64,000 nt of DNA from an archaeon (GCA_030636025.1 DAOVXQ010000004.1:6685-70684); one strand, 5' to 3'; counted from the stretch's first letter, positions 23,692-57,029 are shown. Notes: a model not told the origin generated them from the sequence alone. Numbers and translations are program-made.

Positions 23692-23693
23692 AA

Positions 23694-36728: not shown

Positions 36729-36769
36729 TTAATAACAAGTTTTTTATAGGGTTTTAAGTATTATTGTTT

Positions 36770-38092: not shown

Positions 38093-38093
38093 A

Positions 38094-38417
38094 TTATTTT
38101 ATTTTAATTAAAGTTTCTATAGTTAGTCCTTGAGGGACCATTAATCCTTCTAAATCATGATAATGTAATGTTTTTAAATTGTTTTTATCAAGACTTTCGA
38201 AATTATAACACTCTGAATCTTGTTTTAATCTTGTAGGGATTCCTAAGTAATAACTGCCTTTTTCTATGGTATGGTGAGTATCTTTTAAAAGAACAATTTG
38301 TCCTTGGTATTTTTCAATTGCTTCTTTTGATTTTTCAATTGAAAGAGGATTTCCTAAATCTATTTCTTCAAATACTATTGGTAATCCTATTTCAATATTT
38401 TTCTTTTTTCGAAACAT
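38094..38417 (-). CDS. orphan hypothetical protein
   Basis: ORF track; stop 1 nt from the gatD stop. Confidence 0.65.
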   Translation of the reverse strand: MFRKKKNIEIGLPIVFEEIDLGNPLSIEKSKEAIEKYQGQIVLLKDTHHTIEKGSYYLGIPTRLKQDSECYNFESLDKNNLKTLHYHDLEGLMVPQGLTIETLIKIK

Positions 38418-38468
38418 CTTATATAAATAAATTAAAATTACTTTTTAAAGAAATGTGGTTTAAAATGA

Positions 38469-38957
38469 TTATTTAATTTTTCTTTCAATTCTGTCAAGTT
38501 GTTTTTTCATTTCTTGAATTTCTTTTTCTGCTTTTCTATTAACTTGATAATCATATTCTGCTCTCATTCTGTCTCTTTGGGTTGTTCTGTTTTGTGACAT
38601 TAAAATAACTGGTGCCTGAATTGCGGCTAAGCAAGATAAAGCAAGATTTAAAAGAATAAATGGGAATGGGTCGAATGCTTTTTGGTGGTATTTTAATAAG
38701 AAATAGCTGTTTACAACAATCCACAAGACGAGGAAGAATAAGAAACCAATAATGAAAAACCATGAACCTGCCCATTTTGTTAGGTTATCTGAAGCCCTTT
38801 GACCCAAGGTTAGTTTTCTTTTATCCTGAACAAATGGATAAGTAATTTTTCCAACAAATTTTTCTATTTGTTTGCCTGCTTTTCCGAGTTCTGTTGTTAC
38901 ATCTCCTTTTCTTAATTTTTCAACTTCTTTTTCAACTCTTTCTATCTCTTTTTTCAT
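38469..38957 (-). CDS. DUF1003 membrane protein
   Basis: GSWxFI, FDPFPFILLNL, QAPVILMSQNR. Confidence 0.95.
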   Translation of the reverse strand: MKKEIERVEKEVEKLRKGDVTTELGKAGKQIEKFVGKITYPFVQDKRKLTLGQRASDNLTKWAGSWFFIIGFLFFLVLWIVVNSYFLLKYHQKAFDPFPFILLNLALSCLAAIQAPVILMSQNRTTQRDRMRAEYDYQVNRKAEKEIQEMKKQLDRIERKIK

Positions 38958-39121
38958 AATGATTATTGGGGACCGGCATTTATATAAGTTTTGGGTTGTT
39001 TGGTAATTGATTGGTTTAGTGAAGGGGTTTGTTTAAGCTTTTAATCGCGTTTAATCGCGGGTTGTAACTTAAGAGTGGTTAAAATAGAAACATTTATAAA
39101 GGAGGAATATTAGGGTTTTTC

Positions 39122-39559
39122 ATGGTATTACAGGATATTTCAGATAATGGAAAACCTTCTTTTGAGTTGGAAAACCCTCAATGGGGTATTTCTAATGATG
39201 ATTCTCTTAGTGTTGGAAAGGAAAAGGTTAGTGCACTTAAACAAGCTGTTAAAGAGATGGAAGAAATGATTGAGGGTAGGAAAAATCTTAGTAATGGAAT
39301 TATAAGAGATGGTGAGAAAATGAAGACTGAATTGGAGAATTTTATTGTTAATCGAGACCCTACTGACGAGGATGCGATTAGGGAAAGAAATGGTCTGAGG
39401 CAAAAACAAGTTGAGATTTCTGAATTGCAATTAAAAGAAAAAGTAAGTTGCTGGCAGGATATTGCTCGGCTTATGCAGGAATTAAGAGAGACTAAAAAAG
39501 AATTAACTGAAAAAGAAGAAAGAGCAAATACTCTTGGTAAGATTTTGGAGGATAAATAA
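39122..39559 (+). CDS. coiled-coil protein upstream of ATPase
   Basis: Heptads; EKVSCWQDIARL motif. Confidence 0.8.
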   Translation: MVLQDISDNGKPSFELENPQWGISNDDSLSVGKEKVSALKQAVKEMEEMIEGRKNLSNGIIRDGEKMKTELENFIVNRDPTDEDAIRERNGLRQKQVEISELQLKEKVSCWQDIARLMQELRETKKELTEKEERANTLGKILEDK

Positions 39560-39997
39560 AATGAAAAAATTTAATTATAAAAAAGCACATGAGAGAGAAT
39601 TTAGGGAAGCAAAACTTAATCCTAAAGATTTTACGATTACTAATGAATTTTTTGGATTAAAAGTAAATGAAGATTTAAAATGGGTAAATGGAATAAATTC
39701 TAACACACCTAAATCGAAAAAAGTTTCTGGATTAGAAAAAATTTTTAGGGATGCAAATGATAAAATGGTAAAACTTGTTTGCACTATTTATTCTAATGGA
39801 ATTGATTCTTGTTCAGTTAAGGAATTAAAAGGAGTAGAATATGATCTTTCAAAAATTTATGAAAAATTAATAAATCATCATGATAAATATAAATCCTTAG
39901 TTAAAGACACTAATCCTGATTTTGAACAATCTGCAATGTTGATTTATAATATATTTGATAGAATAAATAAAAATATAAAAGGAGATAATTAAAATGA
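39547..39997. repeat. junction duplication ggaggataaataaaatga (39547-39564) / ggagataattaaaatga (39981-39997)
   Basis: SD + stop + A + ATG reproduced on both sides of the orphan. Confidence 0.7.
39561..39992 (+). CDS. orphan hypothetical protein inserted in the operon
   Basis: ATG 39561 after GGAGG; A-rich codon usage unlike its neighbours. Confidence 0.7.
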   Translation: MKKFNYKKAHEREFREAKLNPKDFTITNEFFGLKVNEDLKWVNGINSNTPKSKKVSGLEKIFRDANDKMVKLVCTIYSNGIDSCSVKELKGVEYDLSKIYEKLINHHDKYKSLVKDTNPDFEQSAMLIYNIFDRINKNIKGDN

Positions 39998-42063
39998 CGC
40001 AAATGTATAAACTGACTGTTGAGGAATTGTGTAGTAAACTTAGACCTGTCTTTGGGAAGAAAATGGATGATATGTATTTGAGATATGCGATGGCTGAGAG
40101 TCGGGATGAGAAAGAGGAAATTGCAGGGATTTTGAATGCATTGTATCATAAAAATTTGAATAAGTTGTTGAGCAATCAGGTTTTGTTAGAGCCGCCTTTG
40201 AAGGAAAATGTCGACGGTGATTATCCTTTGGGTGTTGTGAGTTATGCGAAAAAGCAACTGCATACTTTTTCTTTAAGAGAGCAAGATTGGATGAGACATG
40301 TTTGTGTTTCAGGAATGAGTGGAAGTGGGAAAACTAATTTTGCATTTCATATAATTAATAATTTTATTAAAAAAGATAAACCTTTTTTAATTTTTGACTG
40401 GAAAAAAAGTTTTAGGCCTTTGATGTTGGCGGATTCTGAGATGATGTGTTTTACAATTGGGAATGCAGATGTGAGCAATTTGTTTAAAGTGAATATTAAC
40501 AAACCGCCAAAAGGGATTGACCCAAAAGAATGGATAAATGTTTTGTGTGATTTAATTACTGAAAGTTTTTCTGCTTCGTATGGTGTTCACAAAGTTTTGT
40601 TAGAGACATTGGATGAGGCATTTAAGGAACACGGAATTTACAATGGGAGTAATGATTATCCTAGCTGGAATTATATTAAATGGAAATTAGAATGCAAATT
40701 AGATAAGACAAAAGGGAGAGAGGCGGCTTGGCTTGAGAGTGCTTTGAGGGTTGCCCATGTTTTGACTTTTGGGAATTTTGGAAAAGTGTTGAATTACAAA
40801 GGTAAGGAAAGTATTTCTTTTGATGAATTGTTAGATAAGAAAGTTATTCTTGAATTAAATAGTTTGGGAAATGTTGAGAAGAAGTTTTTTTGCGAGTTTC
40901 TTTTGACTTATGTTTACAAACTTAAGAAAGCGAATTATTCGAGTGTGGACGAGGGGTTTAAGCACGCGATTTTGGTTGATGAGGCGCACAATATTTTTTT
41001 GAAAGATAAAACGAATTTTGTTAAGGAGTCTGTTACAGATATGATTTATCGAGAGATGAGAGAGTATGGGACTTCTTTGATTTGTCTTGACCAGCATATT
41101 TCGAAATTGAGTGATTGTGTTAAGGGGAATAGTGCGTGTCATGTTGTTTTTCAACAGCAACTTCCTCAGGATATTTGGGATATTAGTGGGTTGACGCAGT
41201 TGTCTGATAAAAAGGAGTTTTTTTCAATGTTGCCTGTCGGGAGTGCGATTGTTAAATTAGCTGAAAGGCATACTTCGCCTTTTTTGATTGAAGTCCCAAA
41301 AGCTGAATTAAGGAGTAATAGTTTTACAGATGGGGATGTGAAACAAAGAATGAGTTTTATTTTTGATGGTCGGAAAGTTGAGGCAGGCGTTGATAGGAAT
41401 TTTAGCGACGCTGTTATTAATGGTGGAGTTCAGGAAAAAGAAATTTCTGGACAAGAAATTTCTGAACAGGAGAATTGGCCTGAAAAAAAGGAAGAGGTCA
41501 GAATTCCGAATCATGCATTATATAATGGGCAAATTAAAAAGCCAAAGATTGAAGAACCTGTTGAGGAAGTTTTTGAGCAACCGAAGAATGAGCCGGGTTT
41601 GAATTCTGTCAAAGAAGTATTGTATGATTTTGTTAAACAAAGGTTGGATGCAGGAGATAGTCTTAATGAGATTGAGAAAATAATGGAAGGATATGTCCAC
41701 GAGGGGAAATTTAGTTTTAAGGATATTGCAGAGGTTATAGATTCTGTTTTGAAAAATAATTTTAATGTAGGAGTAATTAATCCTGAAAATGTTACTACTG
41801 AAGAAAAGCAAAACGTTTATAAAGAAGTTCAACCCTCTTTTGAACACTCAGAAAATAAATTATCTGAAGAGCAGAAAAAGTTACTTATTTTTCTGCAGGC
41901 AAGTCCAAATCATAATTTAAGCACAGTTGAAGTATATAACAGCGTCGGGCTTTCAGCAAGAAAGGGAAATAAGATTAAGAAAGAATTAATGGAAAAAGGA
42001 TTAATTAAAATTAAAGAAGAAAAAAATGAAAAAGGCTGGAAGAAAATTATGAGGGCTGTGTAA
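39994..42063 (+). CDS. HerA/FtsK/VirB4-VirD4-like ATPase (DUF87-type) with C-terminal wHTH
   Basis: Walker A GMSGSGKT, Walker B ILVDEAH, REYG..LICLDQ, C-terminal GLSARKG...L.EKGLI. Confidence 0.9.
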   Translation: MTQMYKLTVEELCSKLRPVFGKKMDDMYLRYAMAESRDEKEEIAGILNALYHKNLNKLLSNQVLLEPPLKENVDGDYPLGVVSYAKKQLHTFSLREQDWMRHVCVSGMSGSGKTNFAFHIINNFIKKDKPFLIFDWKKSFRPLMLADSEMMCFTIGNADVSNLFKVNINKPPKGIDPKEWINVLCDLITESFSASYGVHKVLLETLDEAFKEHGIYNGSNDYPSWNYIKWKLECKLDKTKGREAAWLESALRVAHVLTFGNFGKVLNYKGKESISFDELLDKKVILELNSLGNVEKKFFCEFLLTYVYKLKKANYSSVDEGFKHAILVDEAHNIFLKDKTNFVKESVTDMIYREMREYGTSLICLDQHISKLSDCVKGNSACHVVFQQQLPQDIWDISGLTQLSDKKEFFSMLPVGSAIVKLAERHTSPFLIEVPKAELRSNSFTDGDVKQRMSFIFDGRKVEAGVDRNFSDAVINGGVQEKEISGQEISEQENWPEKKEEVRIPNHALYNGQIKKPKIEEPVEEVFEQPKNEPGLNSVKEVLYDFVKQRLDAGDSLNEIEKIMEGYVHEGKFSFKDIAEVIDSVLKNNFNVGVINPENVTTEEKQNVYKEVQPSFEHSENKLSEEQKKLLIFLQASPNHNLSTVEVYNSVGLSARKGNKIKKELMEKGLIKIKEEKNEKGWKKIMRAV

Positions 42064-42185
42064 ATCATATTCAATAAATTACAAATTAACAAACAAAAAC
42101 CGCAAACCAAAATATAGAAACAACAGATAACAAGTAACAACTTATAGAAACTATCTAGAAACACGAAAAATTAATTGCGGAATAT

Positions 42186-42320
42186 GTGAAATACCCTATT
42201 GATGTATTTTACTTTGGTGAAAAAGAAGAAAATGTTTTTAGGTGGAACTATATGTTTTAAATTATTTTTAGTGAAATAAGTGAAATACCTTATTTAATCA
42301 TAAATCATTAGTGGAATACC
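42186..42320 (+). repeat. GTG(A/G)AATACC direct repeats at island left edge
   Basis: Copies at 42186, 42280, 42311; partial at 42271. Confidence 0.65.
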
Positions 42321-42368
42321 TTAAGTTTAGGATAAACTTGTTTTAGAAAAAATGAAAGGAAGTGTGTT

Positions 42369-42605
42369 ATGAGTATTTTTAGTGGTAAAGAACTGAGAAT
42401 AATGAAAGAGGTTTTAAAGCCTAATCAAAAACTAGTGAAAGGCACGCCCTATTGTGTAGGAGAATTGAGATATATTTTCCTGAAGTTATGGGGTCAAATC
42501 ATTAGTAATCGAGAAATAAGAGTTAGAGATTCTAGTGAGGAATCAAATAAAATTTGGAAAGTCATCCACAAATTGAACGAACTTCAGGACGGACAGAAAA
42601 TCTAA
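42369..42605 (+). CDS. hypothetical protein
   Basis: ORF with AAAGGA SD. Confidence 0.6.
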   Translation: MSIFSGKELRIMKEVLKPNQKLVKGTPYCVGELRYIFLKLWGQIISNREIRVRDSSEESNKIWKVIHKLNELQDGQKI

Positions 42606-42665
42606 GGTGATTCAACAGTCGTAAACGAAAACTAATCAGTAGATTAGAGAATTAAGGAGATAATC

Positions 42666-42761
42666 GTGGGTTTGTTAGATAGGTTATGGATAATTCTTTG
42701 TTTCTTGTGGTTTTGGGAATTTCCTCCTTTTAGTAAAAAGAAGGATAAAAAAGAAAAGTGA
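42666..42761 (+). CDS. 31-aa hydrophobic peptide MGLLDRLWIILCFLWFWEFPPFSKKKDKKEK
   Basis: AGGAG SD, GTG start; hydrophobic helix plus basic tail. Confidence 0.45.
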   Translation: MGLLDRLWIILCFLWFWEFPPFSKKKDKKEK

Positions 42762-42772
42762 AGAAGGAGATT

Positions 42773-42832
42773 ATGATGGATAAAAAAATATGGTGGTTGG
42801 CGTTGTTTACTTATTTAGCAGCTATGTGTTAG
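42773..42832 (+). CDS. 19-aa hydrophobic peptide MMDKKIWWLALFTYLAAMC
   Basis: AAGGAG SD; followed by a hairpin. Confidence 0.35.
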   Translation: MMDKKIWWLALFTYLAAMC

Positions 42833-42842
42833 TTGTTATAAA

Positions 42843-42907
42843 CCCCTTTCTTGAGATTTAGGCTGAACGCTTAATTTATAGTTATTAGGCCTGAATCTTT
42901 TTTGGGG
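42843..42907 (+). terminator. long imperfect stem-loop
   Basis: agatttaggc/gcctgaatct with outer cccc/gggg. Confidence 0.55.
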
Positions 42908-42957
42908 ATGCTAAATTAATGTTTTGAAAAACGAATGAAAGGAAAGGTGTTAATATT

Positions 42958-43323
42958 ATGAGTAAAATATGGGCGAACAAATGTGAAGTTTGTGGGGGCT
43001 TGTTTGAGGACGACTATGAATACAATAAACATGTAAGGGTTCATGAACTATTAAAAAATCTTGAAGAAGAGTTCCCTCGAGGGGATTTTAACCGGAGTAA
43101 TTTTATCCAGAGGGATAAAGAATGGCTTGAAAGGTATAAAAAGGCTGTTCAGGAAATAATCGGAAGGACTGGATTTCCTCCCTTTACTGGCGGGTGGTAT
43201 CGGTGTTTAAAGAATAGTGGGAACCAATTTTGCGATATTGCTTATAGAATATTAAATGTTTGCGAAACATGTTTTAAGGAATGGGCTCGCCAGGCCGATG
43301 TGGCTATGTGTTCGCATTCTTGA
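42958..43323 (+). CDS. C2H2-type zinc finger protein
   Basis: CEVC-x12-HVRVH plus a second CxxC. Confidence 0.7.
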   Translation: MSKIWANKCEVCGGLFEDDYEYNKHVRVHELLKNLEEEFPRGDFNRSNFIQRDKEWLERYKKAVQEIIGRTGFPPFTGGWYRCLKNSGNQFCDIAYRILNVCETCFKEWARQADVAMCSHS

Positions 43324-43433
43324 ACCTCTGGAGAAATTAGGAAAGGAGTTATCGGTTAATATTAGTGAAGATGTTCTTCAGATATGGAAAATTTTAATGA
43401 GTGGAAATTAATACAAGCGAAAGGAGTATTTTT

Positions 43434-43754
43434 ATGCAAAAAGGATTTGTCTTATTTATGTTTTGGACACAAGAAAAATATGACTTTCTTGTGGAGTTTA
43501 TGGAACACCTAAAAATGGATTGGAGAGAGGAGTTTGGTGAGTTGGATGCTTGGGACCCTGAGCTAAAAAGATATTTGACTTATTGGTTCAATGCAGAGTT
43601 TGGGTCAAATATCTCCTCCAATGCGATTTGCAACCGCCTTAGAAAATACCTCTCCCAAAAGAATGGGAAAAAGAAAGGACAAGCCTCTGAGGCAGGTATA
43701 AACGGTAGAGTTCATTCACCAAGAACTAGCGAATTTAAATTAAGTCGGCTTTGA
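43434..43754 (+). CDS. putative helical DNA-binding (Myb/HTH-like) protein
   Basis: AAGGAG SD before ATG 43434; WTQEKYDFL...FNAEFG...AICNRL pattern. Confidence 0.55.
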   Translation: MQKGFVLFMFWTQEKYDFLVEFMEHLKMDWREEFGELDAWDPELKRYLTYWFNAEFGSNISSNAICNRLRKYLSQKNGKKKGQASEAGINGRVHSPRTSEFKLSRL

Positions 43755-43763
43755 AATCTGTAA

Positions 43764-43961
43764 GTGAATGGATTTTCTGATGGGGTTGTTAATTTGCATG
43801 ACTTTAGTATGATGTCGTCGCATTGGGGGGCACACGCAACAGACCCTAATAGTAATTATGATGCCTATTTTGAGAACCCAAATAATCTTAATGGCATTAT
43901 TGATGTTTCAGACTTCTACGATTTTTCAAATAAATGGTTAACAGACCCAAATGGTGTGTAA
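43764..43961 (+). CDS. dockerin type I / EF-hand-like repeat peptide (possibly a fragment)
   Basis: Duplicated DGVVNLHDFSMMSSHW / NGIIDVSDFYDFSNKWL. Confidence 0.65.
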   Translation: MNGFSDGVVNLHDFSMMSSHWGAHATDPNSNYDAYFENPNNLNGIIDVSDFYDFSNKWLTDPNGV

Positions 43962-44000
43962 CTTGTTAATTATGTTTCTGGAGCGAAGTTAAATGAGGTG

Positions 44001-44048
44001 AAAGAGCTAAGTGAAAACTTTTAGTGAGTAGCTTAGCTCTTTATTTTG
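44001..44048 (+). terminator. intrinsic terminator-like hairpin
   Basis: aaagagctaag/cttagctcttt then T-rich tail. Confidence 0.65.
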
Positions 44049-44195
44049 TTTATTGGTAATTTAAAAATTAGTTAGAAAAAGAAAGGAGTTTGTTGTCTGA
44101 AAACTATTCATAGTATTTTTAATCGTGTTCTTGGGACATTTAATGTTAATTTTAGTTCTCTACGAGAAGAACTATATTTTTATGAAAGGATTTTT

Positions 44196-44402
44196 ATGGT
44201 TATAAAAACAGTATTTGGAACATTGGGATTATGTTTCCCTATTTTAGTGAGTATAATCCTCTCGCTAAAATATCCTCCTGCAGAAGGGAGATTTTTGATT
44301 TATGGATTATGTGTGGTAATAGACATTGTAAGTTTGTGTTGGATTGTCCGTTTGTGGATACCGATATTTCGAAATATTGGCCTCCATCAAAGAAATCCGT
44401 AA
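44196..44402 (+). CDS. small 2-TM protein
   Basis: GAAAGGA SD; two hydrophobic helices. Confidence 0.6.
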   Translation: MVIKTVFGTLGLCFPILVSIILSLKYPPAEGRFLIYGLCVVIDIVSLCWIVRLWIPIFRNIGLHQRNP

Positions 44403-44567
44403 TTTTAATAAGGAGATAAATTGCGAAGAAATTTTGGGAGGTGTTGCTTTAACTGTGGCATTCTTAATTAGAATGATGTGTGTTTACATGATTTTGGGTT
44501 GAGAATGTAACAACCTCTAAGAATTGTGCGAGGAATTAACCTGATAAACCTTGACAAGGAGATTATT

Positions 44568-44741
44568 GTGTCAGAAAAAGCATGGGATAAATTGTTTGAA
44601 GAAGTTTCAAAGTCAGTTGAATATGGGAGTGCAGAAACCCCTGAAGCTCTGACAAATGTTGCAAGAAATCGCAGACTGTCGCTGGAAGAAACCAATGAAC
44701 TTCAGAGGCGCTACGAGGAGTTTTGCGTCGAAAGTTGTTAA
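44568..44741 (+). CDS. small acidic hypothetical protein
   Basis: AAGGAG SD before GTG 44568 (in frame with ORF 44526). Confidence 0.55.
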   Translation: MSEKAWDKLFEEVSKSVEYGSAETPEALTNVARNRRLSLEETNELQRRYEEFCVESC

Positions 44742-44798
44742 GCAAAACACTAATTTTGTAGAATAGTGTTGTAACAAACATTAAATGGAAGGAGGATT

Positions 44799-45011
44799 AT
44801 GTCAGAAGAAGAATTAAGAGAGCGTTTAATAAAATTAATTAAAAATACTTACACCCCATCTGAGAAAGGAGAGATTCCTGACGAAATGTTTGTGAGTCCA
44901 ATAGGCGAGGTAATTGATTTTTTGAGCTTGAGGATAGGATTTCAAGGATTTGAAGTCGAATCTTTGACAAGAGAAAAGGGTTACCTTGCTACCTTGTTGA
45001 AAAAAGATTGA
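44799..45011 (+). CDS. small protein with coiled-coil C-terminus (IDFLSLRI..QGFEVESLTREKGYL)
   Basis: AAGGAGG SD. Confidence 0.65.
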   Translation: MSEEELRERLIKLIKNTYTPSEKGEIPDEMFVSPIGEVIDFLSLRIGFQGFEVESLTREKGYLATLLKKD

Positions 45012-45137
45012 GTTTTATTATTAGCGAAAGGATAGATATGAAAAATACCATCAAGATAACGCCAGAGACTATCCCTCGAGGGCTTAGGTTTAATTGGGGG
45101 TTTGTTTTAAGTACGGTTTTATTGCGAAAGGTATATC

Positions 45138-45398
45138 ATGAAGAAAAGACTTTGTTTTGGTGTAAAAAAGAATGGTGAAAAATGTGATCTTTTTGGTATT
45201 CTTCAGGAGGTTCAAAAATCAACTAAAAACTGTCCGCGTTGCGGGGCTTCATTATATTTTTTACCTCCTGAGAATGTTACGAAAAAGAAGCGGAAAGAAG
45301 CTATGGGGAAGCTGCCAAAAACAAATAAGAACACATGGCAGAACCGAAGAGTAAAAGAGGGGGGATGTAAACAAAGTTATGTGAATGGTCGCCGTTAA
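45138..45398 (+). CDS. zinc-ribbon protein
   Basis: CFGVKKNGEKC...CPRCG. Confidence 0.6.
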   Translation: MKKRLCFGVKKNGEKCDLFGILQEVQKSTKNCPRCGASLYFLPPENVTKKKRKEAMGKLPKTNKNTWQNRRVKEGGCKQSYVNGRR

Positions 45399-45485
45399 CT
45401 CTCGGCGCGATTGGAGGAGAAAAGAGATTTTGTATAAGATTAAATGTATGAGATTTTGAAACTTATTTTTTGAAAGGTGAAAATT

Positions 45486-48400
45486 ATGAAAAAGAATTTG
45501 AAAGTGATGTTGACTATTTTGTTTGTGACAATTTTACCGGCGACCTTATTTGCGGCACCGAGCGGAGACTATTGTTTTAATATCGGCGACCGCCCGATTC
45601 GAGATATTCAGGGTGATTACTCTGATATTGTTCTCTCAGGGAGTACGAATCTTGAACATTTGTCCCTTTTTCAAAATGAACATGGGATAATTACTGGAGA
45701 AGGTTATGGGACTAAGGGACCTCTTGGGATAAAAACCAAAATTCCTGTGGGTTTTATATATTCATTGCTGAACCAACGGATGGCAGGGATGATAAATATA
45801 TTCACTTTTACTAAAGCATCTAATGGGTGCCCCTTGGGGGTTTTGACCTATCGTGGATATGCCCAGGAAGACCATTTGATTGGTTTGTTTAAGGGGATTA
45901 TAGATAATACCTTGTATGGCTTAACGACGAAAATAGATTTCAGTCATTTAATTAATACGACTGATTGGCAGATTCATTTGTCGAATATGAGAACTGTTGG
46001 CGGTCGAATTACTGGCTCGGCGAAAATAAAACTATCCAGTGGAAGAGAATCTGACTTTAAGGTCATTGGATTTCATAGTGACTGGACAGGACATTCCACT
46101 TTTTTATTGATAGGCACTGCCACAGATGATTCTGAAATCGCTGGTTTGCTTATTTTTGATTTGAATTGCCGAACAAAGAAAATTACATGGATTGTTGGAC
46201 GAATTTTCGGAACAACGGTTTTTAATCTCAGTGCAAATTATGTGTCTGCGAAGCCGATTGATGAACTTGGGATAACCATTGAAACATTTGACGACAATAT
46301 TTTTGTCAACGAAGAAGTTACATTCGATGCTGTTGTTCCAAACGAAAACCAAGAATATTTTGATGGGTTGCAGGTTGCTTGGGACTTCAACAGCGACGGC
46401 GTGTTGGAAGTTCAGCCGACCCTTGACAAATTTTCTTGTTATGCTTTTGAAGAGCCGGGCGTTTATACTGTCACACTATTAATCTTTGGTGAAAATGGAG
46501 ATTGCCATGAATTAACCAAAGAAATAAGAGTAAAGTCAATTGATAGACTCGAGACCACCTTGGAGATTTCTAATTATAATCCCTTTGTCGGCGAGGAAGG
46601 TGGATTTGAGGCCGTGGTCCCAGACGAGAACGCAGATTATTTTGATGGATTGCAGGTGGCATGGGATTTCAACAGCGACGGTGTGTTGGAAGTCCAGCCG
46701 ACTTTCGAAAAGTCTGCCAGTTATGCATTCGAAGAGCCTGGTGTTTATTTAGTTAAACTGTTAATCTTTGATGGAACGGGATTTCATTATGAAATAATCA
46801 AAGAGATTACAGTTGAATCTGAAGCATTGGACTTGCCGGAACTGAAAACTGTCGACGGTTCTACTACGATTTTCGTAGACGAAAATTTGACGGTTCGGAC
46901 TCTTGCCGGGACTTCTGAAGTGGATAATTCAGGCAGGTTTGAAAATTTGGTGATGTTAAACACGGGGAACGGGCAGGTTATTTTCGTTGAGAATGGTGAG
47001 ACTCCTCTTGGGGTTGCTTATATTACTTCAGAACAAGTTGCCTCGGGAATTGTGCAAATAACCTCTCGCGAATTGGCGTTGGGATTGATAAGTTTAAATC
47101 CTTATATTACGGTTTTGTCTCCTCAGAACCGCTCCATGGTTCTTGAAGCATCTGCGAATCATTATGAATTTGCATTATTAAAAGATGATGTCAAGAACTC
47201 GATTATCAATGCGCCGGAGTTGGCTCTTGATTACGAGACCTATCCGTATATTTTTCAAACTTCCACGAAGATAGGTATAGAGACGATTATGAGTTTGGAT
47301 GGCTCGGGGTCTCTTGCAAGATCTTATGCCGGTGTTGGAGAAATAACAGATACTGAAGCAACGAATGTGATGCGACGATTAAGTCCTGTTGCGATTAGTT
47401 CTGTTAGCCAGATGGTTGGCGAGGAAGATTGTCCGCATATCATAGATAAAGCCGGTCCCGAGATTACCTTGGTAAACCCCTTGATGAGCTTTTACGGTTT
47501 TCAGGCAAATGAAAACAGTAATCTTGTCAGAGGAAGAAGTAAGGTATTTAATTTCTTTCCTCCGTGGAGGTTTGGAAGAACTGCACCGTGTGAAAAAGAT
47601 TGGAATCTTGGTGACGGTGTGTTTGACATAACCATTTACAGTGGTTTTAATATCGGCACCGAGGGTTGGTTGGACTACAGGCATTCTGCAGGAAAAGCAA
47701 CTTATGCGAACCTCGCTAAGGTGATTTTCATTTGCCTGGATATTGGTGGCATGGATTTTATGTCGCTTGATAATTCCGTGATAGAAAATCTATTGTTACT
47801 TGATAATGTGCCAAACATCGACCTCGGCAATATCGCCACGAAATTTAAGGAAAAGGGTTGGCAGTATGTTTTGTTACATACTATGCCGGAATTTCTCAGA
47901 AACCATTGGGATGAAATTTCCTATTGGCTGTGGCAAGACGGTGCGACAGGGCTTGCAGAAGGTATGCAAGATGTATCGAGGTATTTTAAGCATACTGCAA
48001 AAGCTATGGAAGGAGTAATGAATGCTCTTCCCGTGGTCGGGATTATTCTTGACTCTGGTGAGATGCTAAACGAATGGATACCTTTCCTCGCTGATTTGGC
48101 TACTGGTCCAAGAATATTACAGTATCGTGTTGAACAAGAAGATGGTGTGCTTTATGAGCTGGCTACGCCTTATATACCTCCGACTGCAAAAATTCGTTTA
48201 GAAAACTATAATCCGTTTGTCGGTGAAGAAGTGATATTTGATGCAAGATTGTGTTACGACGATTGTGATCGTCGTGAAGATTTGCAGGTTCGGTGGGATT
48301 TTGACGGCGATGGAGTATGGGATACGGGTTGGAGCAATGGCAAGATTGCGAATTATACTATGAATCAAAGAGGCAATTTCAGGACCCGACTTGAAGTCAG

Positions 48401-48848
48401 GGATTTGGACGGTCTTGTTGGTTCAGAGACTTGCAGTCTTGTTGTAGGATCTATCGAAAGTTTTAAAATCGTTTTGACCTGGGGACAGAATCCCCGGGAC
48501 CTTGACTCTCATTTGTATACTCCTGTTATTGACGGTTCTTCCCATCATGTCTGGTATAGTTCAAAAGGAAGTGCAATTTCACTTCCTTATGTGTGGTTGG
48601 ACTTAGATGATGTTTCGAGTTATGGCCCTGAAACAATTTGGTTCGAGAGGTTTTTCTCTGGGGAATACAAGTATTCGGTTTACCAGTATTCTTCTGACGG
48701 GGCATTGGCAACATCTGGCGCACATGTCGAAATAATTAGTGCCGGAAGATTAATCGCTTCCTTCGATGTTCCGACAGACTTGTCTGGGCGGACCTGGGAA
48801 GTTTTCACAATTAACGGGGGGACAAAAACTATCACTCCGATTAATTAA
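45486..48848 (+). CDS. secreted multidomain protein: signal peptide, PKD domains, C-terminal YfaP/DUF2135-like domain
   Basis: Sec signal (...ATLFA-A); WDFNSDG x2, WDFDGDG; IVLTWGQNPRDLDSHL...DDVSSYGPETI. Confidence 0.88.
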   Translation: MKKNLKVMLTILFVTILPATLFAAPSGDYCFNIGDRPIRDIQGDYSDIVLSGSTNLEHLSLFQNEHGIITGEGYGTKGPLGIKTKIPVGFIYSLLNQRMAGMINIFTFTKASNGCPLGVLTYRGYAQEDHLIGLFKGIIDNTLYGLTTKIDFSHLINTTDWQIHLSNMRTVGGRITGSAKIKLSSGRESDFKVIGFHSDWTGHSTFLLIGTATDDSEIAGLLIFDLNCRTKKITWIVGRIFGTTVFNLSANYVSAKPIDELGITIETFDDNIFVNEEVTFDAVVPNENQEYFDGLQVAWDFNSDGVLEVQPTLDKFSCYAFEEPGVYTVTLLIFGENGDCHELTKEIRVKSIDRLETTLEISNYNPFVGEEGGFEAVVPDENADYFDGLQVAWDFNSDGVLEVQPTFEKSASYAFEEPGVYLVKLLIFDGTGFHYEIIKEITVESEALDLPELKTVDGSTTIFVDENLTVRTLAGTSEVDNSGRFENLVMLNTGNGQVIFVENGETPLGVAYITSEQVASGIVQITSRELALGLISLNPYITVLSPQNRSMVLEASANHYEFALLKDDVKNSIINAPELALDYETYPYIFQTSTKIGIETIMSLDGSGSLARSYAGVGEITDTEATNVMRRLSPVAISSVSQMVGEEDCPHIIDKAGPEITLVNPLMSFYGFQANENSNLVRGRSKVFNFFPPWRFGRTAPCEKDWNLGDGVFDITIYSGFNIGTEGWLDYRHSAGKATYANLAKVIFICLDIGGMDFMSLDNSVIENLLLLDNVPNIDLGNIATKFKEKGWQYVLLHTMPEFLRNHWDEISYWLWQDGATGLAEGMQDVSRYFKHTAKAMEGVMNALPVVGIILDSGEMLNEWIPFLADLATGPRILQYRVEQEDGVLYELATPYIPPTAKIRLENYNPFVGEEVIFDARLCYDDCDRREDLQVRWDFDGDGVWDTGWSNGKIANYTMNQRGNFRTRLEVRDLDGLVGSETCSLVVGSIESFKIVLTWGQNPRDLDSHLYTPVIDGSSHHVWYSSKGSAISLPYVWLDLDDVSSYGPETIWFERFFSGEYKYSVYQYSSDGALATSGAHVEIISAGRLIASFDVPTDLSGRTWEVFTINGGTKTITPIN

Positions 48849-48858
48849 TGATTTAGTT

Positions 48859-48906
48859 AGAAGTCAGCTGATAGACTTGTTGTTTGTTGGCTGACTTCTC
48901 TTTTTT
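48859..48906 (+). terminator. intrinsic terminator
   Basis: agaagtcagc/gctgacttct stem followed by T6. Confidence 0.8.
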
Positions 48907-48926
48907 GAAATTGAAGGAGCATTATT

Positions 48927-49226
48927 TTGAGAAAAAAATTGTTAGAGGATTTTAAGTTGTCCTTAGAAAGTCAAAAATTTTCTGAGGATTATGTTGAAAA
49001 ATGTATGTTGGAGGTTAAATTGTTTTTAGAATTTTGCGGGGATTCTGAAAACATTATTAATATTAATCCTGCGGCGATAGAACAATATGCGGTTTATCTT
49101 GACGAAACCCAAAATTTTATGGCGGTTTGTAGAGCGATTGTTAGTGTGAAATCGTTTTACGATTTTTTGTATTCGAAAGGAGGAATTTCAGAACATCCTT
49201 TTGAAAGGGTCTTTAAAGAAGTATAA
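48927..49226 (+). CDS. stand-alone tyrosine-recombinase N-terminal (SAM-like core-binding) domain
   Basis: F...L.....S......V..FL.F ... IEQY..YL ... RAIVSVKSFYDFL......HP pattern of XerC/D N-termini; no catalytic domain. Confidence 0.7.
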   Translation: MRKKLLEDFKLSLESQKFSEDYVEKCMLEVKLFLEFCGDSENIININPAAIEQYAVYLDETQNFMAVCRAIVSVKSFYDFLYSKGGISEHPFERVFKEV

Positions 49227-49284
49227 TTTTAGTCGTTATTATGTAGGTTAATTTTTGGTTAAATTTCATTTTTAGGAGATTGTT

Positions 49285-49959
49285 ATGAAAAATTTTGTTA
49301 TGATTATGATTGTTGTTTTGTGTTTGGTAAATATGGGTTTTGCCGAGGGGGTTGAGGTAGAATCCTATTTAAAACTGGGAACTCTTGATTCCATGGAAAA
49401 GGATCGTTCATCTGCCTGTGCCCACAAGCTCATGGTCTGGATAGGGCTTAATTTTGTTTTTGGAGGTGAAACTCCTTTAAAGGCAATGATTAATGCTGAG
49501 ATGTGGACGATGGCAGAGCCAGTTGACCGGGATTTTGGGGTTCCTCATGATGGAATGATTCTTTCTGGGAGATTGAGTCATGATTTCAAATTGACCGAGG
49601 ATATTTTGATTTATCCTTTTGCCAGTGTCGGTTTTGAAAACTGGAGAAGGAATTCACCTGATGATGGAAATCAGGATGAATTTTATGGAGATTTGTGTTT
49701 CTTTAGTTTTAGTTTCGGAAACGGTTTGAAATACAAAAACTGGTATGCGGAAGCAGAAGGTTTTTTGCCGTTTTGGACTAAGACTGATAGCGGACAGAAA
49801 CCTGACGGCGAATGGGGGGGTGGTTTAAATGTCGGATATATTTTTGATGAATATGTCCGATGTGGGATGTTTTACACCCAAAAAAGTTTCGGAGGAGACG
49901 GAACCCAGACTGATTTTAAACTCAGCCAGTATGGGTTTTTTGTTGGTTATACTTTCTGA
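49285..49959 (+). CDS. outer-membrane beta-barrel-like protein
   Basis: Signal peptide, alternating amphipathic strands (YPFASVG, GLNVGYIF), C-terminal YGFFVGYTF ending in Phe. Confidence 0.8.
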   Translation: MKNFVMIMIVVLCLVNMGFAEGVEVESYLKLGTLDSMEKDRSSACAHKLMVWIGLNFVFGGETPLKAMINAEMWTMAEPVDRDFGVPHDGMILSGRLSHDFKLTEDILIYPFASVGFENWRRNSPDDGNQDEFYGDLCFFSFSFGNGLKYKNWYAEAEGFLPFWTKTDSGQKPDGEWGGGLNVGYIFDEYVRCGMFYTQKSFGGDGTQTDFKLSQYGFFVGYTF

Positions 49960-49997
49960 CATCTGTCGGGAGGTTTAAATTAGTTGGATAAATTATT

Positions 49998-50048
49998 GAG
50001 AGCCAGAAAATAGATTCCAAATGGATAATCTAAAATCTGGCTCTCTTT
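49998..50048 (+). terminator. stem-loop after the beta-barrel gene
   Basis: gagagccaga/tctggctctc with inner tagatt/aatcta. Confidence 0.7.
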
Positions 50049-50075
50049 GAATTAAGAAAATATTAAATTTCTCTA

Positions 50076-50404
50076 ACTCTCGCGAAAGGGGGTGATGCCT
50101 ATGATTGTTAAATCCTTAGGCGTGTGTTATTAATACTTTTACACTCAGATGACTAACTAGTCAGAAAGGAGTAACCGTGAAAAAATTAGTAATTGTTAAG
50201 AACAACAAAACGAAGAAAAGCAAGAGATGATTCAAGAAAGAACGGAGTCATCTTAAAAATGAAGCCACGAAAAAGGAGATCTTTAATTAGTGTCATAATT
50301 AGGATCTCGGGTAAAAATTTTATGGTGGGATGAAGAAATTCTGTCGAATAGAATTAGGAGAGTTAGGGTCATAAGATGAAAGTCTACCTAACTCTCCCAC
50401 CCAC
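50076..50404 (+). ncRNA. candidate large structured RNA (at least 7 stem-loops)
   Basis: Seven stems plus a closing helix (listed under findings); G-U pairs favour the + strand; no ORF over 17 aa with SD. Confidence 0.5.
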
Positions 50405-50482
50405 ATTTATTTGATTTAGAACTTTTATTTTTTTTGCAAATTTTTTGATTTGAACATATTTTTTTTGCAAAATTACTGAAAA

Positions 50483-50731
50483 TTAGTAGATATTTTTTCT
50501 AAGTCCTATTTTTATGACACTGATTATTAATTTATTTTCTATTATTTGATAAATTATTCTATAATTTTTAATTCTTAATCTAAATAGTCCTGTTAGTTTT
50601 CCGATTAGTGGTTTTCCAATCTGTGGGTTTTGTTTTAGTTCTAAGATTTTTTTAAGAATTTTATTTCTTTCAAATTTGTCAATTTTTTTAAGAAATATTT
50701 CTGCTTTTTTTTGAAAATATAATTTATACAT
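50483..50731 (-). CDS. RelE/ParE family toxin
   Basis: GKPLIGKLTGLFRLRIKNYRIIY...IGLRKNIY. Confidence 0.92.
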   Translation of the reverse strand: MYKLYFQKKAEIFLKKIDKFERNKILKKILELKQNPQIGKPLIGKLTGLFRLRIKNYRIIYQIIENKLIISVIKIGLRKNIY

Positions 50732-51002
50732 CTTGATTGTCTAATTCTTTTTTTAAATCTTCAAAACTTATACCATAATTTCCTTTTTCAATTTCTTCAA
50801 GAGATTCTGCAATGTCCCGCATTGTTTCAGGGTCTGACAGGACTTCAATAGTTTCAATTAGGTTTTCTCTATCTGTATCTGCAGGGTTTGTTTTTTGAAT
50901 AACTCTTTCTAATAATTCGTTGTAAGTTTCTCTATGATGAATTTTTAATGAATCTAATTTTGATTTTACTTTTGTGTCTAACTGAATTGTGGTTATTGCC
51001 AT
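50724..51002 (-). CDS. antitoxin (RHH-like N-terminus, RelB-like C-terminus)
   Basis: TTIQL..KLDSLK..RETYNE; ETIEVLSD; overlaps the toxin start. Confidence 0.85.
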   Translation of the reverse strand: MAITTIQLDTKVKSKLDSLKIHHRETYNELLERVIQKTNPADTDRENLIETIEVLSDPETMRDIAESLEEIEKGNYGISFEDLKKELDNQDV

Positions 51003-51017
51003 TTTTTTGTTCTTGCT

Positions 51018-51050
51018 CTATAGTTAACCATAGTTTAATATAGTTTATAA
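51018..51050. promoter_or_regulatory. ATAGTT direct repeats over the TA promoter (probable autoregulatory operator)
   Basis: ctatagtt-aaccatagtt-taatatagtt-tataaa. Confidence 0.5.
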
Positions 51051-51104
51051 AAGTTTTGGGTTGGGTTGTATATTTAGATAAAGTTTTATTAAGTAATTTA
51101 TTCT

Positions 51105-52532
51105 ATGTTATTTATGGAGAAAATAAAATCAGGGATAGAAATTCATCAGCAACTTGATACGCATAAATTGTTTTGTAGTTGTCCTTGTGTTTTGAGAAAA
51201 GATGAGCCGGATTTTGTTGTGCAGAGGAGATTGCATGCTGTTGCCGGGGAGGGTGGAGAGATTGATGTTGCTGCTAAGTTTGAAGCAGAACAGGAAAAAG
51301 AATTTATTTATCAAGGTTATGATACAACTTGTTTGGTTGAGATTGATGAAGAACCGCCTCATGAAATTAATCAGGATGCATTGGAAACTGTTTTGCATAT
51401 TGCTTTGCTTTTGAATTGCGAGATTTTGCCTATTAGTCAGATTATGAGAAAGACTGTTGTGGATGGTTCGAATACTTCTGGTTTTCAGAGGACGGTTTTG
51501 ATTGCTCGGAAGGGTTATGTTGAAACTGAATCTGGAAAAGTTAGAATTGATAATATTTCTTTAGAGGAGGATTCTGCGAGGAAGATAAAAATAGAGAAGG
51601 GCAGGACTATTTTTAGGTTGGATAGGTTGGGGATTCCTTTGGTTGAGATTGGAACTGCACCAGATATTACAAGTCCTGAACAGGCGAAGGAAGTTGCTTT
51701 GCATATTGGGGATGTTTTAAGGAGCTGCAAGGTTAAGCGAGGGATTGGAACGATTAGGCAGGATGTGAATGTTTCTATTGAGGGGCATCCTCGTGTTGAG
51801 ATTAAAGGTTTTCAGGATATTAAAATGTTTATTCCAACTATTGAAAAAGAAGTCGAGAGGCAGGAAAAAAATTTAGTTGGAAAAAAAGATTTGAGAGGCG
51901 AGGTTAGAAATGCTTTGCCGGATGGAAGCAGTGAATTTTTGAGACCTATTCCTGGGTCTGCGAGAATGTATCCTGAAACAGATTTGCCTTTGCTGAAAAT
52001 TTCAAGGCAAATGATTAATAATGCTAAAGCAAGTTTGCCGAAGTTAAGAAGAGAGATAGAAAAAGATTTGGAGAAGAAAGGGCTTTCAGAGGATTTGATT
52101 AAATTATTAATTCGCAGTGGGAGGTTGGATAGTTTTGAGAATTTGTTGAAGGTTGTTAATGAGCCGAATTTTATTTTTAAGGTACTGGTTGAAATTCCAA
52201 AAGAGATTGGGTCGCATGATGGAATTAAGAATATCGACGGTGTTTTAAATTTGGATATTGTTGAGAGTATTGTTTCTGCTGTTAAAGAAAATAAAATAGA
52301 AAAAGGAGATGTTAAACATGTTATGGAAGAGATTGTTAAAGGGAAAAGTTTTGCAGATGCGATTGAAATTGAGAAAATTGATTTAGGGGATGTTGAAAAA
52401 GAGATTGCGAAGTTGGTTAAAGCAAAACCAGGGTTGAGTGTTGGAGGATATATGGGCTTGGTGATGCAGAATTTTAAAGGAAAAGTTAGTGGGAAAGAGG
52501 TTAGTGAGATACTTAGAAAGTTGATTAAATAA
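51105..52532 (+). CDS. gatE: Glu-tRNA(Gln) amidotransferase subunit E (short, no AspRS-like insert)
   Basis: GIEIHQQL, DGSNTSGFQRT, LDRLGIPLVEI, RMYPETD; 475 aa. Confidence 0.96.
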   Translation: MLFMEKIKSGIEIHQQLDTHKLFCSCPCVLRKDEPDFVVQRRLHAVAGEGGEIDVAAKFEAEQEKEFIYQGYDTTCLVEIDEEPPHEINQDALETVLHIALLLNCEILPISQIMRKTVVDGSNTSGFQRTVLIARKGYVETESGKVRIDNISLEEDSARKIKIEKGRTIFRLDRLGIPLVEIGTAPDITSPEQAKEVALHIGDVLRSCKVKRGIGTIRQDVNVSIEGHPRVEIKGFQDIKMFIPTIEKEVERQEKNLVGKKDLRGEVRNALPDGSSEFLRPIPGSARMYPETDLPLLKISRQMINNAKASLPKLRREIEKDLEKKGLSEDLIKLLIRSGRLDSFENLLKVVNEPNFIFKVLVEIPKEIGSHDGIKNIDGVLNLDIVESIVSAVKENKIEKGDVKHVMEEIVKGKSFADAIEIEKIDLGDVEKEIAKLVKAKPGLSVGGYMGLVMQNFKGKVSGKEVSEILRKLIK

Positions 52533-56841: not shown

Positions 56842-57029
56842 ATGTTGAGGGAATAATGAATAGATATGGTTTAGGGGTAGAGATTGCAAGAGTTTTGGTA
56901 GAGTCTTATGGGGTTTCGGGTAACCCTCGGGAATATGGATTTTATAGACAGAAAATGTTTGATGCAGGGCTTACGACTTGTGGTTTGGAAAATGCTTTAA
57001 ATTGTTTGGATGTTATATTTAAAAAATGA
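56838..57029 (+). CDS. orphan small protein between gatC and gatA
   Basis: ATGA overlaps at both ends. Confidence 0.6.
   Translation: MNVEGIMNRYGLGVEIARVLVESYGVSGNPREYGFYRQKMFDAGLTTCGLENALNCLDVIFKK

Follow-up and report, generated by a model that had tools for sequence, protein, structure and literature searches.

How does a run of bacterial-looking genes behind Shine-Dalgarno (SD) sequences come to lie in an archaeal chromosome, and for whom is it meant? The question is raised by the 64,000-nt window analysed here (GCA_030636025.1, DAOVXQ010000004.1:6685-70684; all coordinates below count from its first letter unless a contig is named). In this window, a first-pass annotation made from the sequence alone had pointed to positions 42186-50460 as an island of co-oriented open reading frames (ORFs) with bacterial expression signals, lying beside a HerA/VirB4-like ATPase operon. 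The answer that we favour, with a probability of roughly 0.6, is that the island forms the cargo arm, hypervariable in its content, of a motor unit conserved across a family of DPANN archaea, and that in this genome the arm is horizontally acquired DNA that includes at least two genes of diderm bacteria. The arm is contiguous with its archaeal flanks, is a compositional outlier, is missing from close relatives and follows a layout that recurs across the family. What remains of it is a mixture of orphans and of decayed pieces, one a recombinase N-domain and one dockerin-like.

The host genome comprises 733,590 bases in 17 contigs with ~31% GC, and archaeal markers are found on both sides of the island, namely gatD (36764-38092), gatE (51105-52532), an archaeal-type AspRS, Alba, TFE-alpha and FtsZ. 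The GC content is 0.37-0.42 in the island versus ~0.30 in the surroundings, with a step at both borders. Apart from the rRNA region, the top 3-kb GC windows of the whole genome are those of the island (0.420 versus a mean of 0.311 and a standard deviation of 0.027), and the GC content at third codon positions is 0.29-0.39 versus 0.227 +/- 0.060 in the host (z = 1.0-2.7). A GC step at both borders would also fit an assembly or binning chimera, in which bacterial DNA would have been joined to an archaeal contig. This explanation is extremely improbable: the borders are crossed at flank depth by contigs from a second assembler, archaeal genes (gatD, gatE, AspRS) stand on each side and the layout is repeated in 23 other genomes. 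In the Logan assembly, which is independent, of a public run that holds 0.99 of the stretch and is probably its source (run X1), a contig of 13,006 nt at a depth of 11.8 covers 38000-50708 with one mismatch, and the next contig, at a depth of 12.6, overlaps it by 30 nt and extends to 53000; these depths are one figure per contig and not local read coverage. Both borders are thus bridged at even depth, so that no chimera is seen and the break looked for at the borders, a test set by the first-pass annotation, is not there.

A second run (X3, from another study) contains contigs of a host relative, 90-99% similar, which cover the flanks at depths of 20-88 and leave 42.5-50.5 kb almost uncovered. 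Two of these contigs depart from the window sequence at 42322, directly past the third of the sequence boxes described below. One further contig of that run, at a depth of 3.1, links 42270 to 50845 via 30 other letters; the lengths of its two matching sides are not given, and it is a lead only. Runs X2-X4 contain small shares of the stretch, from which no habitat is deduced.

The expression signals were compared with those of the host by using 791 ORFs of at least 80 amino acids (aa) called genome-wide. Upstream of these, a TTTAWAAA signal is apparent, with T enriched at -29 to -27 and A at -26 to -22, and a purine-rich signal at -12 to -5 is absent (G not above 0.18 throughout). A TATA-like word occurs at -33 to -19 in 414 of the 791 ORFs, and an SD pentamer at -17 to -4 in 80. 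The first-pass statement that the remaining window is TATA-led, ~25 nt before the ATG, was therefore correct and is true genome-wide. Its run of co-oriented SD-led ORFs was also borne out: between 42100 and 50480, 22 pairs of SD and start codon lie on the + strand and one on the - strand, the island holds 18 of the 44 GAAAGG words of the whole window, and the segment 39122-49959 is the one place in the genome where at least four of five consecutive genes are SD-led. Because four of the 22 pairs fall within the two large genes, ~17 of them are considered real. These SDs are not diagnostic of a bacterial target, however, because the motif of the island (GAAAGGAGG) is used by host operon-internal genes as well and the 3' end of the host 16S rRNA (GGATCACCTCCT) keeps CCUCC; SD-bearing host genes often carry TGAAAGGAGGT (C6:21035, C9:107481, C9:113624, C14:66511, C16:23098 and C17:15967). 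A consensus scan of the island for sigma-70 promoters gave 55 sites versus 45.1 +/- 7.2 expected, which is no significant excess, and a terminator scan gave 12 versus 8.0 +/- 3.0, also not significant. Five strong hairpins followed by T-runs divide the island into approximately five units; the earlier statement that stem-loops separate the ORFs was nevertheless overstated, since a fold of -12 kcal/mol or stronger within 70 nt after the stop is present at only 3 of 15 island ORFs (7% in the host).

The island belongs to a larger unit of 12 kb, whose features are listed here.

38979..39005, + strand: direct repeat, left copy, with TTTATAWAAGTTTTGGGTTG as its core, located at the promoter of DUF1003; it delimits the 12-kb unit on the left.
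39122..39559, + strand: partner protein, 145 aa, no Pfam family; homologs upstream of the ATPase.
39534..39992, + strand: ORF of 152 aa between partner gene and ATPase, no family.
39994..42063, + strand: HerA-clade ring ATPase (residues 1-440), connected by a disordered linker to a winged helix-turn-helix at the C-terminus.
42064..42368, + strand: non-coding region with an A/C-rich tract, then GTGRAATACC boxes at 42186, 42280 and 42311.
42369..42605, + strand: first arm gene, 78 aa, SD aatGAAAGGAagtgtgttATG; a 64% identical ORF lies directly after the ATPase in locus L023, and this is the sole small cargo gene common to the window and a relative.
42666..42832, + strand: two SD-led hydrophobic mini-ORFs, 31 and 19 aa.
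42853..42905, + strand: hairpin and T-run, terminator-like (-17.6 kcal/mol), end of unit 1.
42958..43323, + strand: zinc-finger-like orphan, 121 aa (zf-C2H2_4 6.6e-4, below cut-off); in the atlas, hypothetical phage proteins form the nearest clusters (0.94), which is no more than a weak lead, and there is no match in the phage collection.
43434..43754, + strand: orphan, 106 aa; 4 proteins at E<=1e-3, itself included, among 1.84 billion representatives.
43764..43961, + strand: dockerin-like fragment, 65 aa, GTG start, without SD (dockerin_GC 1.3e-3).
44001..44042, + strand: hairpin and T-run, end of unit 2.
44196..45398, + strand: SD-led small ORFs at 44196-44402 (68 aa, membrane), 44568-44741, 44799-45011, 45038-45178 and 45138-45398 (Cys-rich, zinc-ribbon-like); no family above cut-off for any of them.
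45486..48848, + strand: secreted PKD protein, 1120 aa, with signal peptide, three PKD domains, and central and C-terminal conserved domains without a family.
48859..48906, + strand: hairpin with an 18-bp stem and T-run (-27.5 kcal/mol), the strongest terminator-like site.
48927..49226, + strand: 99-aa fragment like the N-terminal SAM-like domain of tyrosine recombinases, catalytic domain missing.
49285..49959, + strand: outer-membrane-type 10-stranded beta-barrel, 224 aa, with signal peptide and C-terminal ...GYTF.
49989..50410, + strand: right end of the arm, with hairpins at 49989-50054 and 50357-50398 and SD-led mini-ORFs at 50095-50133 and 50177-50230.
50483..51002, - strand: RelE/ParE toxin (50483-50731; ParE_toxin 3.2e-12) and antitoxin (50724-51002; DUF7557 4.2e-8).
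51044..51070, + strand: direct repeat, right copy, just 5' of the gatE promoter.

The evidence on the origin of the cargo comes from the two large genes. The 1120-aa protein contains PKD_4 (Pfam, 2.2e-16), as had been proposed; the YfaP part of that proposal was not found by Pfam in any part of the protein, and its N-terminal, central and C-terminal parts gave no further Pfam family. Its last ~670 residues (~60% of the length) are 44-49% identical to four proteins, one of which is named Candidatus Aureabacteria, and the genome loci with relatives are in metagenome-assembled genomes of Nitrospirae, Auribacterota and Calditrichaeota. None of the other island genes is present at these bacterial loci. 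The bacterial relatives P0002-P0005 bear a C-terminal tail of ~30-45 residues ending in ...D..MPPK.., which is missing from the protein of the window and is possibly a sorting signal lost after transfer.

For the 224-aa protein, four relatives were found among 5.8 billion clusters. An AlphaFold2 model from the 5-sequence alignment (mean predicted confidence, pLDDT, 76.3) has a helix at residues 2-16 and 10 strands, and its best Foldseek match is OpcA (2vdf, E 1e-7, TM 0.66); Gram-negative outer-membrane barrels account for every listed match. The beta-barrel of the first-pass annotation is thereby confirmed. The signal peptide, the even strand number and the C-terminal aromatic residue, a Phe in GYTF that is invariant in the five sequences, are the features of an outer-membrane barrel. 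The protein resembles the small Gram-negative barrels of the OpcA/OmpT/OmpX type in its signal peptide, 10 antiparallel strands and terminal aromatic, and differs from them in its identity of 17%, in having only four relatives and in being encoded in an archaeal chromosome. Genes for barrels of 43% identity lie in metagenome contigs with bacterial genes for SSB (165 bits versus a cut-off of 54), HemL and a 2-oxoacid oxidoreductase, in mixed orientation. Outer-membrane barrels are not known in archaea, and the lineage in question has no known outer membrane.

Because only bacterial relatives were found for them, the PKD giant and the outer-membrane-type barrel appear to come from diderm bacteria. 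The homologs found for the cargo are non-archaeal rather than mainly archaeal or archaeal-viral. Among the smaller pieces, the Xer N-terminal domain that had been noted in the 99-aa ORF is a weak match (Phage_int_SAM_1, 5.7e-4) that stays below the Pfam cut-off; XerD (1.4e-5), XerC (1.3e-4) and XerA (2.3e-4) models also match far below their cut-offs, and a search for longer relatives of the fragment gave none. The dockerin-like repeat likewise exists as a weak match, at 19 bits under the NCBIfam cut-off of 29, and the 65-aa ORF is probably a gene remnant. Apart from a weak paralog of this ORF on contig C12, no paralogs of arm proteins were found in the same genome. The profile searches (Pfam, PHROG, NCBIfam) agree with the first-pass view that no capsid, intact integrase or replication gene is present: among the window proteins, they detected neither capsid, terminase or replication genes nor the catalytic domain of a recombinase, and the PHROG search of 14 of these gave the P-loop match of the ATPase as its only result. 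Rfam gave nothing credible in 38-52 kb. The toxin-antitoxin pair at the edge is of a host-typical kind, with paralogs on five other contigs and the same pair at the same place in the genome G019.

The ATPase that precedes the arm was assigned by its fold. Pfam gave DUF87 (1.7e-9) and NCBIfam gave CedD (3.5e-16; 59 bits versus a cut-off of 600), with weak TraC and HerA matches, and an unrelated NCBIfam model for serine-rich proteins scores above CedD (4.2e-19). An AlphaFold2 model built from 17 sequences (pLDDT 75.6) has a core like that of HerA, which a disordered linker joins to a C-terminal element of three helices and two strands at residues 625-688. Its top Foldseek matches are all HerA (Sulfolobus 4d2i, 1.5e-13), SIR2-HerA or DndH, and the GMSGSGKT P-loop is invariant in the 17 sequences, as is proper to the HerA clade. 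The HerA half of the original HerA/VirB4-like label therefore holds; no VirB4-like N-domain is evident. A PHROG transcriptional regulator matches residues 628-685, and a PHROG terminase P-loop matches weakly (2.7e-11). FtsK_SpoIIIE is not among the Pfam hits at E<=0.01, no relatives of the ATPase were found in IMG/VR, and PADLOC gave weak HerA/mad8 hits only (34 bits) at this locus, without defence partner genes.

The ATPase was then searched for in 401 genomes of the order, of which 61 contain it, all within one family (60 of 355 genomes). It is present in 11/11, 11/11 and 3/3 genomes of three genera, at 52-68% identity, in 23/35 of a fourth and in 5 of the 41 genomes searched of the window's own genus. 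We examined 24 loci, that is, the window, G005, G019, G065 and 20 others; a 25th (G017) ends 2.7 kb past the ATPase. The order is the same in all 24. The partner gene and the ATPase come first, a non-coding stretch of 300-600 nt that contains an A/C-rich tract and the boxes lies behind them, and a co-oriented array follows, with many SD-led ORFs. The arrays range in length from 1.4 kb to >26 kb, and almost no genes are common to those of different genomes. Variable islands thus follow this ATPase in relatives, as the first-pass annotation had asked to be checked. Homologs of the partner protein (41-52% identity), which reads by eye as a probable coiled-coil, lie upstream of the ATPase in 24/24 loci. 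The slot between the two is itself variable: it holds other small genes in relatives, an FHA-like one in L014/G017 (by eye) and five or six extra small ORFs in G005 and G065.

The boxes are the second constant element. The motif G[AG]AATA[ACT][CG] has a density of 4.8/kb in the 900 nt after the ATPase versus 0.52/kb elsewhere in the loci, and at least one forward GAAATACC box follows the ATPase in 24/24 loci. GTG[AG]AATACC occurs four times in the genome of the window, with three copies within 136 nt after the ATPase. No Rfam family was found for the box region (42064-42368). In many loci, GAAATACC boxes are also present where the partner gene begins, either at its 5' end or slightly within it (~-2200 to -2800 relative to the stop codon of the ATPase), and there they would fit operator sites. 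Given boxes both at the operon start and after the ATPase, a single factor may regulate motor operon and arm alike. Some of the boxes are arranged as GAAATACC-N8-10-GGTATTTC palindromes, clean in about 9-10 of the 24 loci (a loose regular expression matched 14/24), and a dif/terminus hot spot was considered because of them; it was dropped, as neither the cumulative GC skew nor gene orientation turns at the locus.

What the arrays of relatives carry is mostly unassignable. A Pfam family (E<=1e-4) was found for 10 of 150 relatives' array ORFs versus 31 of 53 host genes of the window, the array ORFs being shorter; among array ORFs of at least 150 aa, the figure is 7/67. The families include FliS (1.4e-31), OMP_b-brl, LysM, Band_7 and FHA, and the arrays also encode a sigma-70 factor (TIGR02937, 49.5 bits versus a cut-off of 42.9; PHROG 3.8e-15), three GFxxxE prepilins and TPM. 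FliS, OMP_b-brl, LysM, the sigma-70 factor and the prepilins are typical of bacteria and turn up sporadically in these arms. Any PHROG was matched by 6 of 150 arm proteins, none of them structural. By a crude rule, signal-like N-termini are present in 109 of 220 array proteins versus 130 of 779 host proteins. Co-oriented tRNA genes lie inside the arrays of L023, L024, L026, L027, L028, L030, L035 and L037; their anticodons, as given by ARAGORN, include TTA ('Stop') and TCA ('SeC'), and several have irregular anticodon loops. A tRNA-Leu with anticodon AAG (A34), which is unusual for archaea, is present in the host itself (C9:7825-7908) and in the flanks of L033 and L036, and A34 tRNAs were accordingly dropped as a bacterial marker.

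Several of these results weigh against the cargo-arm reading and its bacterial source. Bacterial origin was shown for 2 of ~17 ORFs here, so that the first-pass idea of DNA captured from a diderm bacterium stands for the foreign composition and for the two large proteins, whose relatives are all bacterial, and not for the remainder. Identity to the bacterial relatives is only 43-49%, and therefore no donor is identified. Since only 10 of 150 relatives' arm ORFs have any Pfam family and most are orphans, most cargo has no assignable source, bacterial or other. A GC rise of at least 0.07 was found in 9 of the 20 further loci and in G005, G019 and G065; it is little or absent in 11 of the 24 arms, and therefore not all arms look foreign. 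No GC gradient along the arms, as a sign of box-proximal insertion, was seen. Sigma70_r2 was found in 133 of the 401 genomes (131 above the Pfam cut-off), usually far from the ATPase locus, in a search whose control was positive in 10 of 14 control genomes, all named bacteria. Among the 13 genomes with both a placed ATPase and a listed sigma-70 place, the factor lies in the arm only in G005; bacterial-type genes therefore also enter these genomes outside the arm, and the arm as their only entry point was rejected. Sigma-70 and other bacterial genes in Woese-/Pacearchaeota have already been published (Castelle et al. 2021, PMC8204110). Finally, the borders of the arm itself (42323 and ~50480) yielded no recombinase, att site or repeat.

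Some of the same observations would suit a native, fast-evolving operon of archaeal surface proteins, without recent transfer, in which the GC content and the SDs would reflect operon structure and protein composition. The SD motif is common to host genes, half of the arm proteins have signal-like N-termini, 11 of the 24 arms have host-like GC and most arm genes are orphans. It is, however, difficult to reconcile with the top GC outlier of the genome, with two large proteins that have bacterial relatives only, with an outer-membrane barrel fold in this lineage and with the contigs of a close relative that diverge exactly at the arm, and we consider a native operon improbable. Elsewhere in the window, a 1720-aa protein of right-handed beta-helix/NosD repeats (17454-22616), followed by a MoxR-DUF58-VWA trio (22651-25510), probably represents a surface or adhesion system of the host. 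Other bacterial-type genes of the window stand in a native-looking context: DisA (DAC and linker; 16340-17365), and GatB and a GatA-like amidase (33072-34457 and 57026-58342), alongside the archaeal GatD/GatE.

The chromosomal place of the 12-kb unit (39006-51043) adds a further element to the argument. It lies between DUF1003 and gatE and not in the rpoD|L18e slot of the ribosomal cluster, which is its usual location; in L030, by contrast, the unit stands between tRNA-Leu/L18e-L13-S9 and RpoD-S11-S4-S13 (proteins named by eye), whereas the rpoD-tRNA-Leu-L18e cluster is uninterrupted in the genome of the window (C9:6554-10380). In the 27 genomes of the genus with gatD and gatE on one contig, the gap between the two genes is 0.5-6.4 kb in 22 and 13-33 kb in five (G000, G019, G005, G068 and G065), of which G068 is without the ATPase. 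The unit is flanked by a direct repeat of 20-27 nt, 85% identical over 27 nt and in direct orientation, whose copies enclose everything from the partner gene and the ATPase to the arm and the toxin-antitoxin pair; its 14-nt core, TATA[AT]AAGTTTTGG, is confined to two sites of the 733-kb genome (38981 and 51046). This repeat is possibly an insertion scar. It also counts among the points against our reading that the repeat is clear in this genome only, being degenerate in G019 and indistinct in G005 and G065. In the ATPase-less genomes G021 (L021) and G016 (L020), a promoter-like GTTGTAACTT...TTTWTAAA precedes a different, unrelated gene, and the DUF1003-gatE slot therefore appears to swap its content behind a fixed promoter. 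From gene order and repeats, the whole 12-kb unit appears to have itself moved in this genus.

Another possibility is that the whole unit is an integrated plasmid- or virus-like element, with the ATPase as its packaging or transfer motor and the arm as its accessory region. The patchy distribution in the genus (5/41 genomes), the short slot of 0.5-6.4 kb in 22/27 genomes, the unique flanking repeat, the empty rpoD|L18e slot of this genome, the recombinase fragment together with the terminal toxin-antitoxin pair, the weak terminase P-loop hit and the tRNA genes within relatives' arms all fit this. But no capsid, portal, replication gene, relaxase or intact integrase was found here, the few PHROG matches of relatives' arms are not structural, no relative of the ATPase is in IMG/VR, and the ATPase of the three genera in which every genome has it looks vertical. 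An integrated element is, on balance, rather unlikely, and a known prophage was rejected because searches of IMG/VR, PHROG and the phage collection gave no structural genes or relatives.

Comparison with known systems places the motor-linked cargo arm close to, and yet apart from, several of them. Like genomic islands and flexible hot spots, the arm is a GC outlier, is missing from close relatives at this site, has bacterial relatives, contains a recombinase remnant and has a toxin-antitoxin pair at its edge. Unlike them, the slot is tied to a motor-plus-box module family-wide, the cargo is strictly co-oriented and mostly orphan, and no tRNA target or integrase was found, the nearest thing being the 99-aa N-domain-like fragment below cut-off. 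On flanking repeats the picture is mixed: none was found at the borders of the 8-kb arm, and the unique 20-27-nt repeat flanks the larger 12-kb unit. Integrons consist of IntI, attI, Pc and attC-bounded cassettes. The arm shares with them a conserved platform followed by a variable, co-oriented array of small, SD-led, mostly promoterless genes; its spacers, however, are short or plain terminator hairpins and its genes reach 3.4 kb. Pfam found no IntI or Phage_integrase catalytic domain in 38-51 kb, and a crude test for attC (RYYYAAC-N40-150-GTTRRRY) gave one chance match whose spacer lacks a matching fold; without IntI or attC-like sites, an integron was rejected.

Parallels to the motor are the TraB/clt system of Streptomyces and FtsK/KOPS, in which ring-shaped motors for double-stranded DNA with a C-terminal winged helix act with arrays of 8-bp repeats. 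The ATPase locus is similar in its FtsK-HerA superfamily ring motor, C-terminal winged helix and adjoining 8-bp repeats; it differs in its HerA fold, in having no membrane anchor and in the boxes that also stand at the operon start. CedB and CedD are the Ced DNA-import ATPases of Sulfolobales (PMC11868833). The ATPase has a HerA-clade domain in common with them, and CedD is its best-scoring named functional family in NCBIfam; however, its score is far below the cut-off (59 bits versus 600), its N-terminus is a helical bundle with no evident membrane helix (by eye), and no CedA-like channel gene is conserved near it.

These parallels bear on whether the arm could be DNA destined to function within a diderm bacterial partner, with the motor loading at GAAATACC boxes and exporting it in the manner of TraB/clt or T-DNA. 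A motor with a putative DNA-binding tail does lie beside oriented 8-mer boxes in 24/24 loci, and the cargo genes are directed away from these boxes. Part of the cargo would be useless without an outer membrane, a bacterial flagellum or a bacterial RNA polymerase (the barrel, FliS and sigma-70), relatives' arms contain tRNAs with suppressor-type anticodons among them, and some Pacearchaeota have been proposed as episymbionts of bacteria (Castelle et al. 2021, PMC8204110). Export nevertheless appears very improbable: the motor has no conserved companion in the form of a membrane channel, a pilus or a relaxase-like protein, the SD motif belongs to the host, sigma-70 promoters are not in excess, the arms contain decayed fragments, and boxes at the start of the motor operon suit operators better than a site of loading. 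A bacterial destination is not apparent from the expression signals, and delivery to a bacterium is a low-probability possibility. A broader version, in which motor and boxes would be a DNA-transfer device between the archaeon and a diderm partner that either captures partner DNA in a fixed orientation or delivers cargo, is in our view quite doubtful. If it were true, the arm would either document a bacterial host or supply tools for use on it, and delivered sigma factors, tRNAs and envelope proteins could act in the bacterium.

Under the reading that we prefer, that of a hypervariable cargo arm attached to a conserved motor unit, the system could work as follows. New DNA would enter the slot in one orientation through a recombination step tied to the box region, and the Xer-like fragment may be a relic of the enzyme responsible. 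Transcription of the arm would run rightward, beginning at a box-region promoter as well as at internal sites and ending at the hairpin/T-run sites, and the host ribosome would translate the arm via SD pairing, as it would host operon-internal genes. Binding of the boxes by the winged helix of the ATPase would couple motor and arm.

The motor-box-arm layout is not described in the full-text literature searched; in print are only general facts on bacterial genes and hosts (PMC8204110). The present window contributes the diderm-type cargo, a check of contiguity and evidence for a change in chromosomal place of the whole unit within one genus. The hosts of most DPANN archaea of the Pace-/Woesearchaeota type are unknown. 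Because the slot turns over between species and here holds genes that are sensible only in a double-membraned bacterium, it may be readable as a trace of the partners with which these archaea exchange DNA. The arm hints at close contact with bacteria and does not show that its DNA is meant to work inside them, and because it is always coupled to the boxes and to a DNA motor, so far unstudied, with a putative DNA-binding tail, there is a concrete mechanism to examine.

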